A stretch of 64,000 nt of DNA from assembly GCA_963832175.1 (NCBI GenBank), contig CAWHTC010000003.1, positions 886,080-950,079 of the forward strand. Reading direction: 5' to 3'. How positions within the stretch are numbered: position 1 is the first letter of the stretch; every line of letters starts with the position of its first letter. The translations under genes and the position numbers were made by a program. Positions 7,389 to 10,172 of this stretch are shown here, in pieces. Under the pieces are notes generated by a model that saw only the letters and a list, made by a program, of their open reading frames with translations, made no database searches and had not been told where the DNA came from. The DNA is from an uncultured Alphaproteobacteria bacterium. GTDB taxonomy: Bacteria; Pseudomonadota; Alphaproteobacteria; Rhizobiales; Beijerinckiaceae.

Positions 7389-7757
7389 ATGAGCGTGCCA
7401 GGTTTTAATGCAGACGCCTCGGCGTATAGAACGAGCCGGCGCTATTATATGAGGGGCGCTACTGCTGAGGGTAGTGGAGCCTTATTTCCGGCGCAGCAAG
7501 CCTGTCCGCCTCAATGCATCCGGCGGTGCGAGGCCGGTTGCCGGGCTGACGGAAACTCCCAAAGCTTTTGCCAGAATCTCTGCCGCTTGGACTGTGAGGC
7601 CTACGGCCCGTGTGAACCTTTGCCACCGCCGCCCCAGTTCCCCACTCCTTGGGTGTGCGAGCTGGACCCTGTGTCCAGGACGTTATCAGCTCCTTGCTGC
7701 CGTATCTGCCATCGGCTGCTTAGCCCTGATATTGGCCAAACTCTCCATACTTGTTAG
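7389..7757 (+). CDS. Cys-rich small protein 1 with conserved PGFxAxAS leader (122 aa, 13 Cys)
   Basis: MSVPGFNADASAYRTSRRYY...LFPAQQ followed by CX3C repeats; leader shared with 4 neighbours. Confidence 0.75.
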   Translation: MSVPGFNADASAYRTSRRYYMRGATAEGSGALFPAQQACPPQCIRRCEAGCRADGNSQSFCQNLCRLDCEAYGPCEPLPPPPQFPTPWVCELDPVSRTLSAPCCRICHRLLSPDIGQTLHTC

Positions 7758-7862
7758 GCACGTGGGCGGGTTTGTTCTTTGTCCGCTGCGACTTGACCGA
7801 GGAGTTTCCCTTCTTGGTCCCAAGATGTCACCGAAAAACTTAACTGAAAGGAGGAACTACCA

Positions 7863-8086
7863 ATGAGTAAAACGAATTTACCAGGATTTACGGCAGGGGC
7901 CTCACTCTACGAGACCACTAGCTCTTACCGGTCGCGAGTGACTCAGCCGGAAGGCGGTGGGCATGCGATTTTTGCGCAGGGTTGGGGCTCGGCTCATGTG
8001 CGGTACTTAGGTGCGAGCGGCAGGAGGAGGGAGGTCGGGTGTGGTATGAGTGCGAGTGCGACATCCCGGGGGATCCTCCGATATAG
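7863..8086 (+). pseudogene. Cys-rich small protein 2, one-base frameshift at about 7980
   Basis: Strong RBS (GAAAGGAGG); MSKTNLPGFTAGASLYETTSSY...AIFAQ; adding one G at 7979-7981 gives GLGLGSCAVLRCERQEEGGRVWYECECDIPGDPPI* (stop 8084-8086). Confidence 0.65.
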
Positions 8087-8284
8087 CTCGCGATCTGCTC
8101 TTTATAGCAATTAATGGTAATAGCAAACGCTGGAGACTGGTGTTAGTACCGGGGTGACGCTATGGAACACAACCCATTCATGCTTGGCTAAGCTCGGAAA
8201 TATAAACCAGGAGATGGATGACGATGATCCTAGCAACATTCTTAACTTCCTAGGACGCGGGGTTAAATAACAGCGGGTGACGAA

Positions 8285-8521
8285 ATGAAAGTGCCTGGAT
8301 TTAATGCTGACGCATCCTTACAACGTAGTACCAAAACATACAGAAGCAATGGTCATTACCGTAATGGGCAGTCTGCTGATTCACACGCATGTACTATTGT
8401 ACCTGCAATCCCTACGTGTGACACGTGTCCCCATGAGGAGGGTTGGTGTCTTGAATATTGTACTGAAACGGAGTGTGTGTATTCCCCGGTGGGTCCCTCA
8501 GGTCTGTGTGGCATTTTTTGA
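8285..8521 (+). CDS. Cys-rich small protein 3 (78 aa)
   Basis: MKVPGFNADASLQRSTKTY...TIVPA followed by CDTC..CLEYCTETEC..C core. Confidence 0.75.
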   Translation: MKVPGFNADASLQRSTKTYRSNGHYRNGQSADSHACTIVPAIPTCDTCPHEEGWCLEYCTETECVYSPVGPSGLCGIF

Positions 8522-8618
8522 TAGAAGGAGCAGCAGGTCGGGTGGGCGTTTGAGAGTTACGCGGTGGTTGGTCGGCTCATACGGGTGTGTGGTCAACGGA
8601 ATTTTGAGTTCACGGTGA

Positions 8619-8997
8619 CTCCTCCGCGGTAAGTCCGGGCATTTTGTTCAACATGCGGATCCCGAGCAATTTGGACCGGCAGCCGAAGAACTGTTCGACC
8701 GGGTCATGCAGCTAACCGACAATGCCGGCGACCAACGAACACCGCGCCTTGAATTTACTCGCCGCGCGCGATCCGGCTATTTACGCCAAGGCGGCGAAAG
8801 AATTTGCGCGCGACCTTTCGCTGACCGCAGTAGAAGTGCGCCTCTCGCCCTTTAGCGGAACACGGAAGGTGGTGGACGCGATCTTCGCCTTCACCAACCG
8901 CAATAGCGATTTCACCGAGAAGTTTTTCGTGCGCGTCGATGTGACCGAGGAGTTTCCGTTCCTGGTGACCAAGCTGTCGCCGTATTACGACCGGTGA
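8619..8997 (+). pseudogene. 5'-truncated, frameshifted PatA/PatG-type C-terminal (cyanobactin protease DUF, PatG_C-like) domain
   Basis: AEELFDRVMQLTDNAG / TNEHRALNLLAARDPAIYAKAA...EKFFVRVDVTEEFPFLVTKLSPYYDR recognised from memory as the PatG_C-like terminus; 2-bp slip at about 8729. Confidence 0.7.
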
Positions 8998-9018
8998 AAC
9001 GACTTTTGGAGGTGTACC

Positions 9019-9538
9019 ATGAACATGCCCGGATTCGACGCAGAGGCTTCCCTGTACAGAACAAGCAAGACCTACCGTGGCGCTTATGGAATACGGCTAG
9101 GTAACGCATCTACTTTGATAATGCCGCAGCAGTCTACACGTGAGCTTTGTGAAGGGCTTGCTTTGCGGTGGTCGTAGCTTGTTCCCCGGCCTGCAATGGC
9201 GTTCCTTTTCCTTTAAACATAGTTTGTGCATTCGGATGTCGCACCATTCGAAAGGAATGTGTGGATGCTTGCCAAGGGGACGGAATCGTCATCCGCATCA
9301 GAATAGGAACGCCACCTAGTGCACTGACTTCAGACGGAAGGTGCAGTCAATCGGTGATTCGCATGGCCTGCGCCATTTGTGAATCAGCCGTTTGTGTCAG
9401 TGCACTAGGCCATGTCAGGACGAGGACGAACCATGCCCACCAAGCTGCTGTCCTGGACTACGCTGTCAGAATGGCCTCTGTAAGCCGAGGCCAATGGACG
9501 GGCCGCCAGGGACATCTACCCCTGGACTATGGCACTGA
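9019..9538 (+). pseudogene. Cys-rich small protein 4 (frameshifts at about 9155 and about 9395) ending in a knottin-like motif
   Basis: RBS GGAGG; MNMPGFDAEASLYRTSKTY...LIMPQQ; corrected core LCEGACFAVVVACSPAC...CAFGC...CVDAC; third-frame CQDEDEPCPPSCCPGLRCQNGLC. Confidence 0.65.
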
Positions 9539-9619
9539 CTTTCTGCGTCGGCTCACAGGGTTTGTTTAAGCGAAGCCGTTACCCACGAACTTGACGCACA
9601 CAACTACTGCGCTTACTTT

Positions 9620-9904
9620 ACCGGCCCTTTCAGTAGCTCTGCAGACGGTATCGCAGTTGTTCCGCAGCTTATAGCGTCCGGCGATTACTGGAACTGCGTG
9701 GCTGAGCACCGTGAAGCGGGTTTCCCCATGGATTTAAGTGGTTTCTTCTGCAGAGGGGAAGAAGGCGGGCCGGGTGGGGGTGGCGGCGGCGGCGGCCTCA
9801 CCCCACGTCAGTGTAGTGCCGCCGTCAGAAACTGCCGAGCCGGGTGTCGTGGGCGTGGGCGGAGTGATTGCATTGCTGAGTGCAACGCCGACGTCATCTG
9901 CTAA
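9620..9904 (+). pseudogene. Cys-rich small protein 5 (leader start degenerate, retains AVVPQ)
   Basis: In-frame SSADGIAVVPQLIASGDYWNC...Gly-run...CSAAVRNCRAGCRGRGRSDCIAECNADVIC*. Confidence 0.55.
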
Positions 9905-9926
9905 CCGACGTGAGGGAGGTAACGAA

Positions 9927-10172
9927 ATGACCATGCCAGGATTTAACGCAGAATCGTCGCTTGAGCCAACCACGGGCATATACCCGGGGAAGGTAGTTTT
10001 CGGCGGATTTCCGTCAGAAGGCAGCGGAGGGGTTATACCGCAACTTGGTTTCGGGGGGGATCCGGATCTGGGCGCGTACTGGAGATGCAGGTTCAATGGG
10101 GGGAGCGATCTCATATGCCGTTTCTTTGGCGGGCTTCCTCCCTTCACAATCGGTGGCCTGTTGATCCGCTAA
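9927..10172 (+). CDS. Small protein 6 with the same leader (81 aa, 2 Cys)
   Basis: RBS GGGAGG; MTMPGFNAESSLEPTTGIY...GVIPQL core. Confidence 0.75.
   Translation: MTMPGFNAESSLEPTTGIYPGKVVFGGFPSEGSGGVIPQLGFGGDPDLGAYWRCRFNGGSDLICRFFGGLPPFTIGGLLIR

Follow-up and report, generated by a model that had tools for sequence, protein, structure and literature searches.

A partly decayed array of PGF-leader precursor genes in a Beijerinckiaceae contig and the widespread S8 protease cassette to which it probably belongs

What is a row of short cysteine-rich genes, which share their beginnings and little else, doing around a fragment of a cyanobactin-type protein in an alphaproteobacterium? The question is raised by positions 7389-10172 of a 64,000-nucleotide stretch (positions 886,080 to 950,079, forward strand, of contig CAWHTC010000003.1, assembly GCA_963832175.1) from an uncultured member of the Beijerinckiaceae, which is referred to here, at its full length, as the window. 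The first-pass annotation of this DNA took the genes for precursors of peptides that are ribosomally synthesized and then modified post-translationally (RiPPs), matured by a cyanobactin-protease-related pathway into disulfide- or thioether-stapled miniproteins. We regard it as reasonably probable that the window holds the downstream, partly decayed precursor array of a widespread, mobile and unannotated four-part cassette, made of an S8 protease, a small CxxC protein, a stand-alone protein with the domain of unknown function (DUF) of PatG, and the precursors themselves, which the protease would mature into disulfide-rich miniproteins.

Five genes of the plus strand, starting at 7389, 7863, 8285, 9019 and 9927, share the opening M-x(1-4)-PGF[N/T/D]A[D/E/G][A/S]S, with a conserved Tyr eight residues on; their N-termini read MSVPGFNADAS (P1), MSKTNLPGFTAGAS (P2), MKVPGFNADAS (P3), MNMPGFDAEAS (P4) and MTMPGFNAES (P6). 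In an alignment of these leaders eight columns are invariant, and the identity to the first leader is 35-40%; the cores that follow are unalignable. A hidden Markov model (HMM) built from the leaders of relatives and run over the six frames of the 64 kb matches exactly these five, with E values of 1e-7 to 1e-11 and within 2.8 kb, so the starts given in the first-pass annotation hold. The same is true of its leader ends, namely LFPAQ (P1), AIFAQ (P2), TIVPA (P3), LIMPQ (P4) and GVIPQ (P6), plus AVVPQ at 9653-9667 in the sixth gene, P5; of its cysteine counts (13, 4, 6+1, 14 for the intact homologue of P4, 8, and 2, from P1 to P6); of the GGAGG or GAGG Shine-Dalgarno-like motifs upstream of P1, P2, P4 and P6; and of the absence, by sequence inspection, of a hydrophobic h-region or twin-arginine motif for Sec or Tat export from the leaders, in which Ala, Ser, Gly and Thr abound. 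The PatG C-terminal fragment in the middle of the array is equally real, with the open reading frame (ORF) 8722-8997 scoring 86.7 bits against PF18065 (cutoff 25.9; 1.5e-24; profile positions 27-115 of 115). The count of six precursors stands in part: there are five PGF starts, the sixth gene (P5) lacks one, and frameshifts had been read through. P1, P3 and P6 are intact, and P2, P4 and P5 are broken. The features of the array and its borders are as follows.

7389-7757, plus strand: P1, an intact 122-aa precursor with the leader MSVPGFNADASAYRTSRRYY...LFPAQ and an 84-aa core holding 13 Cys in a Cx3C series
7775-7843, plus strand: Relic 1, the 3' end of a DUF gene (..FFVRCDLTEEFPFLV..), matched by tblastn to DUF residues 325-341 at 7775-7825, just upstream of P2
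7863-8086, plus strand: P2, a precursor broken by a 5-bp tandem duplication (GGCTC) at 7986-7990
8285-8521, plus strand: P3, an intact 78-aa precursor with the leader ..TIVPA and a 6-Cys core
8664-8997, plus strand: Relic 2, what is left of a stand-alone DUF gene before P4: its final ~110 codons, frameshifted near 8729 and matched by tblastn to DUF residues 238-348
9019-9538, plus strand: P4, a precursor pseudogene with an intact leader (..LIMPQ) and a core split across three frames
9316-9404, no strand: insertion in P4 that looks like a miniature inverted-repeat transposable element (MITE), an 85-bp element plus a CTAG duplication (89 bp together), with perfect 14-nt terminal inverted repeats CCTAGTGCACTGAC
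9539-9904, plus strand: P5, a relic whose PGF box is decayed (..TGFV*, frame change), with the AVVPQ end and an 8-Cys core open
9927-10172, plus strand: P6, an intact 81-aa precursor with the core ..DPDLGAYWRCR.NGG.DLICRFFGGLPPFTIGGLL and 2 Cys
6384-7342, plus strand: IS5-family insertion sequence (IS), with orfA at 6467-6895 and orfB at 6947-7318

The company that such genes normally keep is seen in relatives. A scan seeded with the DUF gene, with one genome per species, returned 237 relatives, the best 80 loci of which were kept; later sets comprise 84 loci (for a regular expression and for gene clustering) and 92 loci (for gene order and relics). Most hosts of the best 80 are ordinary soil Acidobacteriota, accompanied by Nitrosospira/Nitrosovibrio isolates, Methylobacter luteus, Edaphobacter modestus, Brocadia, cyanobacteria, Verrucomicrobiota, Chloroflexota, Planctomycetota, Flavobacteriaceae and others, and the DUF is 58-78% identical across these loci. 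With such identity across phyla, the cassette appears to be horizontally mobile. The regular expression finds 224 ORFs with a PGF leader in 80 of 84 loci, with one to seven precursors per locus, and of the matches of the leader HMM 248 share the strand of the DUF gene and a single one lies on the opposite strand. Wherever all four parts are present (58 of 58 loci), their order is S8 gene, small ORF, DUF gene, precursors. Clustering of ORFs across loci leaves these four as the only conserved components, the next clusters being found in no more than seven loci. No recurring transporter or other modifying enzyme (macrocyclase, heterocyclase, oxidase, prenyltransferase, radical S-adenosylmethionine (SAM) enzyme, ATP-binding cassette (ABC) exporter, encapsulin or thioether-forming enzyme) is conserved across the 84 loci, and the co-occurrence with ABC exporters, radical SAM and encapsulin genes for which the first-pass annotation had proposed a check thus did not materialize. 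In one locus, L002, genes for GFA, Trypco2 and a trypsin-like protease, which are components of conflict systems, lie just downstream of the array (4018-5795), an arrangement not conserved in other loci.

Seeding with the leader leads to the same place. Five leader matches, chosen solely because their contigs are long, each follow immediately on a PatG_D/PatG_C gene of the same strand, and four of these contigs hold an S8 gene as well. The linkage between the leader and PatG_D/PatG_C is therefore solid in both seeding directions, and with it the proposal of a leader/core precursor family tied to PatG-like genes; the absence of such linkage, which the first-pass annotation had named as refuting, did not come about. 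The combination expected of a RiPP locus, leader/core architecture with a clustered processing enzyme, is found in relatives; the window keeps the precursors only.

The five window leaders, used as a query, retrieved only 10 proteins, on whose contigs S8, PatG_D/PatG_C and precursor genes stand in a row, and a reading of the family as rare was considered on that account. It was rejected, since a profile of 61 leaders finds at least 2,226 protein clusters with a PGF leader (E<=0.01, 5.8e9 sequences). The best 120 of these 2,226 are all unnamed or called 'hypothetical protein', and none has a Pfam domain. Neither the leaders nor the small ORF nor the short cores have a match in Pfam, NCBIfam or PADLOC, and curated leader models of NCBIfam and Pfam (NHLP, Nif11, double-glycine and others) show no match at E<=1 with the window precursors or at E<=10 with consensus-like ones. 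No published description of the system was found in the full-text literature, whose coverage is incomplete. Judged from sequence, this leader-plus-core precursor family is genuine, widespread and so far unannotated. Conserved leaders in front of unrelated cores, with many precursors per enzyme set, recall the prochlorosin-type and NHLP/Nif11 systems. However, besides the lack of an NCBIfam leader match, there is here no LanM, cyclodehydratase or PCAT exporter, and maturation would presumably consist of proteolysis and disulfides only.

The anatomy of the precursors was derived from 230 unique sequences. The leader, of ~35-40 aa, has the consensus MN(x)MNMPGFTAEASLYKTxxHY, followed by a spacer rich in Gly, Ser and Ala and by G-G-[GS]-x-V-[VIL]-P-[Q/A], and the logo of the junction with the core reads GG[GS]xV[VIL]P[QA]. 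The motif [VILMF]xP[QA] is located 28-30 residues past the Pro of PGF in 143 of the 230 precursors, versus 14 in shuffled controls. Cysteine accounts for 0.55% of leader residues and 12.5% of core residues; its number in the core is even in 91.5% of cases, with 4, 6 and 8 dominating. The spacings Cx3C and Cx6C are enriched ~1.6-fold, CxxC is depleted (0.75 of expectation), and His (1.6% of core residues) is not enriched. No conserved C-terminal motif was found in the cores. The cysteine content and the even counts point to disulfide-rich miniproteins. The 'disulfide' half of the earlier proposal is thus favoured, whereas its 'thioether' half is unsupported, because neither a radical SAM nor any other thioether-forming enzyme is conserved.

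Cores have a median length of 45 aa and range from ~30 to more than 430 aa, the long ones being Stig1-type Cys-rich repeats (PF04885). Repeats of this type are familiar from secreted plant proteins, and they would be an unusual cargo for a peptide-type leader. PGF leaders on very long Stig1-like cores, up to 478 aa in total, are encoded in loci L070 (9161-10546 and 11281-12717) and L029 (6646-7245 and 7921-8577). Although the cores vary among paralogs, each type recurs across phyla, as illustrated by the P6 type, the P1 type and a type reading CGNCDYILDxC...NACAxGDC. The P6 type is the most conserved, with 18 loci in several phyla, and the P1 type is present also in the acidobacterial locus L070. 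In a single-sequence AlphaFold2 model of P1, residues 1-36 have a predicted local distance difference test (pLDDT) score below 50, a helix-loop-helix at 41-72 reaches ~80, and the overall value is 52, so that the model depicts a disordered leader and a core whose Cx3C ladder is carried by a helical hairpin. The P6 model, made with a 4-sequence alignment, has a mean pLDDT of 45. In joining a conserved pro-region to a hypervariable mature part with an even number of Cys, the precursors recall conotoxins, defensins, STIG1 and alpha-hairpinins, the more so given the Stig1 repeats, the Cx3C hairpin of P1 and a weak match of P1 to the Pfam family Ole_e_6. Contrary to those eukaryotic precursors, the present ones are bacterial, lack an endoplasmic reticulum or Sec signal and come with a dedicated, clustered protease and DUF, and their short cores may be similar without being homologous.

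The S8 protein of relatives is ~293 aa long and has the catalytic D/H/S motifs, without a signal peptide or propeptide, and each locus has one such gene. Its nearest chains in the PDB are PagA (2e-25) and PatA (2e-23), with the PatG macrocyclase at 3e-11. The protease of relatives resembles the leader-cutting PagA/PatA and not the macrocyclase. Against the NCBIfam model TIGR03895 (cutoff 421), the S8 proteins score 99-112 bits and the DUF proteins 25-46; the best NCBIfam match of the S8 proteins is the mycosin of the type VII secretion system (T7SS), with 117-121 bits for a cutoff of 279. PADLOC gives a generic subtilase/IetS-like match for S8, and nothing for the DUF protein, the small ORF or the precursors. 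The stand-alone DUF protein carries PatG_D (PF18047) and PatG_C (PF18065), with 105-120 bits in relatives, and matches weakly the PatG DUF structure 4UVQ; over 1,891 pairs of loci it has a median identity of 69%, against 63% for S8.

The remaining part, a protein of ~70 aa, has its gene between those for S8 and the DUF protein in 75 of 92 loci, with the consensus P[YH]RVRLPGF[IV]x[DE]E.GLGD.IKR.T...GI.PCGGC..RAAALNRW. It is found, for example, at 1219-1422 in L002 and 1844-2068 in L003, and it is occasionally fused to the C-terminus of S8, as in L022 (3938-5002, fused). The small protein and the leaders share a short [ML]PGFx[AS][DE] stretch, and the leader HMM has no match on the small protein. 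The shared stretch makes a role in docking, or as a pseudo-substrate, conceivable.

The cassette thus resembles the first step of cyanobactin maturation, yet it is not a cyanobactin cluster. The likeness comprises the PatA/PagA-type protease and its partner with the same PatG_D and PatG_C domains, the Pro at P2 and the hydrophobic P4 of the predicted cut site, the several precursors and cores per locus, and the cytoplasmic enzymes. As to the DUF itself, the window relic exceeds the Pfam gathering cutoff for PF18065, and the relatives do so for both domains. On the other hand, protease and DUF are here encoded separately, on either side of the gene for the conserved CxxC mini-protein; a PatG macrocyclase, a heterocyclase, an oxidase, a prenyltransferase and PatB/C are all absent from the conserved set; and the leader is unrelated, in front of Cys-rich cores of 30 to more than 430 aa instead of 6-20 aa, in many host phyla. 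The marks of a cyanobactin cluster, namely a TIGR03895 score of 421 bits, a PatG macrocyclase with an AYDG-like C-terminal signal, and a PatE-like precursor, are all missing. The ILPQQ of cyanobactin leaders, which had been likened to the leader ends seen here, belongs to the N-terminus of PatE, whereas h-x-P-[Q/A] is located at the junction of leader and core.

These features allow us to propose how the cassette would work. The S8/DUF/CxxC machinery would recognize the PGF box, with the DUF protein, the CxxC protein or both possibly taking part in the recognition, and the S8 protease would then remove the leader after h-x-P-[Q/A]. This site is suggested by its Pro at P2 and hydrophobic residue at P4, as in the G(L/V)E(A/P)S after which PatA cuts (PMC10885120). 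The leader itself differs from that of PatE, with MxxPGFTAEASLY...V[VIL]P[QA] in the place of G(L/V)E(A/P)S before short cores. Once released, the miniproteins would fold oxidatively into disulfide-stapled products, such as the Cx3C helical hairpins predicted for P1, and their roles would likely be outside the cytoplasm, in antagonism, inhibition or binding.

The PatG_C fragments indicate where new cores may come from. By tblastn, the window has two DUF fragments only, at 8664-8997 and 7775-7825; the larger one, Relic 2, lacks the PatG_D part and has no S8 gene upstream, and the same 91-aa PatG_C ORF is present in an independent assembly. Relics of the DUF tail, spanning its last 19-107 codons, lie downstream of an intact DUF gene in 18 of 92 loci (for instance at 9347-9427 in L008, at 9459-9524 and 9987-10061 in L016, and at 9329-9652 in L045), and 17 of 19 relics have a precursor within 200 nt downstream. 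Since a relic is mostly followed by a precursor, a new precursor gene seems to arrive with the end of a donor's DUF gene attached, successive arrivals accumulating downstream, which suggests capture of cassettes via the conserved DUF tail; cassettes gained in this way would leave the PatG_C relics behind, the two of the window included. Downstream cassettes preceded by a fragment of a conserved upstream gene are known from the orphan cassettes of contact-dependent growth inhibition (CDI) and Rhs systems, with the difference that the fragment is here that of a separate enzyme gene and not of an effector, and that no immunity genes are seen. A genuine family of short stand-alone PatG_C proteins was considered as well, the best 120 database matches to the window PatG_C ORF being 82-159 aa long. 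It was rejected, because their starts correspond to conserved internal Met residues of the full DUF and tblastn places them as tails or relics behind full genes; database proteins of 95, 97 and 141 aa with 'PatG_C only' are gene calls on DUF tails or on fragmented genes.

The reference for what the window has lost is L001, a 7.4-kb metagenome contig 98% identical to window positions 7341-9020 and 93% to 9606-10224. Its order is S8 protease, small ORF, PatG_D+PatG_C gene, a 136-aa P4-type precursor, P1, P2, P3, a 91-aa PatG_C piece, P5 and P6. In the window, a plus-strand insert of 3.8 kb lies between ilvC (5116-6135, minus) and pgk (10227-11267, minus), and its left part is an IS5-family element, recognized by a DDE transposase in two frames (Pfam DUF4096 and DDE_Tnp_1) with terminal inverted repeats of 20 nt (6384-6403 and 7323-7342). 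The homology to L001 begins at 7341, the outer right end of the element; the left flank is the upstream region of ilvC, the right flank is the precursor array, and the element has no target-site duplication. The IS5-family element stands where the protease, CxxC and DUF side was, and its flanks from different contexts, together with the missing duplication, argue that the enzyme side was lost or separated by an IS-associated deletion or rearrangement. The window copy is an IS-truncated, partly pseudogenized remnant.

The precursors themselves have decayed to different degrees. P1 is 98% identical to its copy in L001 (five non-synonymous and two synonymous differences), and P3 differs by 2 nt. 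P2 ends early as assembled (7863-8114), with its Cys-rich part in another frame; its intact form in L001, P0003, has 72 aa and 4 Cys. P4 also ends early (9019-9177), with its Cys-rich parts in other frames, owing to the loss of 1 nt in a G run at ~9153 and to the 89-bp insertion; the intact homologue (L001, 4588-4998) has 136 aa and 14 Cys. Relative to the window, one G is added after 9153 in a soil RNA contig, and 9316-9404 is missing from a soil DNA contig. The inserted 85-bp element, of which the window has a single copy, looks like a MITE mobilized by an IS5-type transposase. The decayed PGF box of P5 is common to the window and L001. In P6, the core is 100% identical to that of L001 (7079-7324) and the leader differs at 10 of 39 residues, which may reflect relaxed constraint on a leader without its protease. 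The leader changes hit positions conserved family-wide, with G to E, R to P and R to G in the window.

Part of this damage has to be read with the quality of the assembly in mind. Frameshifts also affect pgk, gap and an efflux pump of the resistance-nodulation-division (RND) type (10227-12368 and 19155-22467), the N-terminus of pgk being out of frame near 11290, gap missing its first ~28 codons and the pump being split into two ORFs. These are most likely indel errors of a long-read assembly, for which reason single-base frameshifts elsewhere in the window deserve limited trust. Such errors differ in kind from the duplication of 5 bp, the insertion of 89 bp, the DUF truncation (also in L001) and the IS junction. 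In L001, at 2376-4566, the reading frame is likewise broken in the gene for S8 and in the N-terminal part of the one for the DUF protein (the GTS motif lies in another frame and the sequence is garbled after YVYALG), be it by long-read errors or because the machinery has decayed in that relative as well. Contigs of a soil metatranscriptome at least 90% identical to P4 and P1, with the L001-type order, give a hint of transcription in relatives, not proof of it; RNA-seq of isolates yields only noise-level word shares.

Several observations weigh against a cassette that matures miniproteins by leader removal, or against its operation in this organism. The S8 protease and the small ORF have no tblastn match in the 64-kb window, so P1, P3 and P6 are orphans, which could be matured only if the genome holds a second copy of the machinery; the cyanobactin-protease-related pathway of the first-pass annotation is consequently retained for the relatives with their linked S8 gene, and not for the window, whose PatG_C piece is a 3' relic. 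The 1-nt frameshift of P4, a part of the argument for decay, may be an assembly error. A scan for promoters and terminators of the window stays at background level, with no signal standing out, and the metatranscriptome possibly contains DNA. A clean h-x-P-[Q/A] at the expected offset is wanting in ~28-38% of precursors, and cores of up to ~440 aa are larger than usual natural-product peptides. The PatG DUF of cyanobactins showed no precursor binding by nuclear magnetic resonance or isothermal titration calorimetry (PMC4259220), which weakens the idea of the DUF as a leader receptor. Finally, with no signal peptide on S8, the DUF protein or the small protein and no conserved transporter in the loci, the cassette offers no evident route to an oxidizing compartment.

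This last point leads to the alternative that survives best, though we still consider it unlikely: the PGF leader would be a sorting or docking tag for non-classical export or quality control, with S8 as a kind of 'signal peptidase' and ordinary extracytoplasmic Cys-rich proteins as cargo. A cargo of ~30 to more than 430 aa that includes Stig1-like repeats of extracellular type would fit such a tag, even cysteine counts imply an oxidizing destination, and the best NCBIfam match of S8 is a T7SS mycosin. However, that score is far under its cutoff and the nearest solved structures are PagA and PatA; moreover, conservation across the 84 loci extends to no membrane or transport component, and S8, the DUF protein and the small protein all look cytoplasmic.

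That the cores serve as effectors against competitors or phages, in a polymorphic toxin or conflict system whose orphan cassettes are displaced like those of CDI/Rhs loci, would be a claim about role, compatible with the proposed maturation, and we hold it to be improbable. It accounts well for paralogs that are hypervariable within a locus while core types recur across phyla, for the DUF-tail relics ahead of later cassettes in 18 of 92 loci and for the mobility of the cassette, and it agrees with the Trypco2 and trypsin-like genes adjoining L002. What speaks against it is that no immunity-like gene is paired with each precursor, and that PADLOC recognizes nothing beyond the generic subtilase.

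Chances are poorer still, in our estimation, for the cores as intracellular metal binders, of a metallothionein-like or copper-storage-like kind, freed from an inactive pro-form by the protease. Such proteins would need no exporter, and both the very high Cys content and the Cx3C ladders on the predicted helices of P1 agree with the idea, Csp-type Cu(I) storage proteins having a similar look. Many copper-dependent methane or ammonia oxidizers are also found among the hosts (the Methylocella-like window, Methylobacter, Methylococcaceae, Nitrosospira and Nitrosovibrio), but most hosts are the soil Acidobacteriota mentioned above. The even Cys number in 91.5% of cores is a signature of pairing and not of thiolate clusters, His is not enriched, and the under-representation of CxxC disfavours metal binding of the zinc-knuckle type.

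Head-to-tail cyclic cystine-rich peptides, analogous to cyclotides and made by a PatG-like macrocyclase, are suggested by little more than the domain names PatG_D and PatG_C and are essentially excluded, since these domains are the DUF common to PatA and PatG and not the macrocyclase, the single S8 gene of each locus encodes a protein closer to PagA (2e-25) than to the PatG macrocyclase (3e-11) and leaves, with ~293 aa, no room for the cap insertion, and the cores have no conserved C-terminal recognition motif.

As for the rest of the window, scans for Rfam families and tRNAs came back empty. A transketolase in the same 90% cluster as that of the window is named Methylocella sp., as is a PatG_C fragment 80% identical to the window relic, and both names agree with an alphaproteobacterial host. 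A 449-aa protein encoded at 16129-17478 on the minus strand has an N-terminal signal-like segment and a repetitive sequence rich in Asn, Ser and Thr, in an island of 40% GC within a region of ~60% GC, and its gene was probably acquired horizontally.

Leader removal by S8 and disulfide-rich products therefore remain the reading that we prefer for the cassette. Beyond it, we suggest tentatively, and at somewhat less than even chances, an unnamed, horizontally mobile ribosomal peptide system spanning phyla, in which a PatA-type protease split from its DUF, the DUF as a protein of its own and a CxxC mini-protein would mature libraries of disulfide-rich miniproteins whose cores are captured via the DUF tail. 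If true, this would be a bacterial counterpart of the hypervariable arsenals of the conotoxin or defensin kind. The maturation set is minimal, with three small genes, and is present in the culturable Nitrosospira multiformis, Nitrosovibrio, Methylobacter luteus and Edaphobacter modestus, where it can be tested directly; its stand-alone DUF offers a clean system, and a genetic handle, for the function of the cyanobactin DUF, a question since 2014. Should the mechanism hold, the more than 2,000 unannotated precursor clusters of soil, groundwater and nitrifier or methanotroph genomes would represent programmable, protease-released, disulfide-rich miniproteins, an untapped pool of stable scaffolds and of possible antimicrobials or inhibitors.

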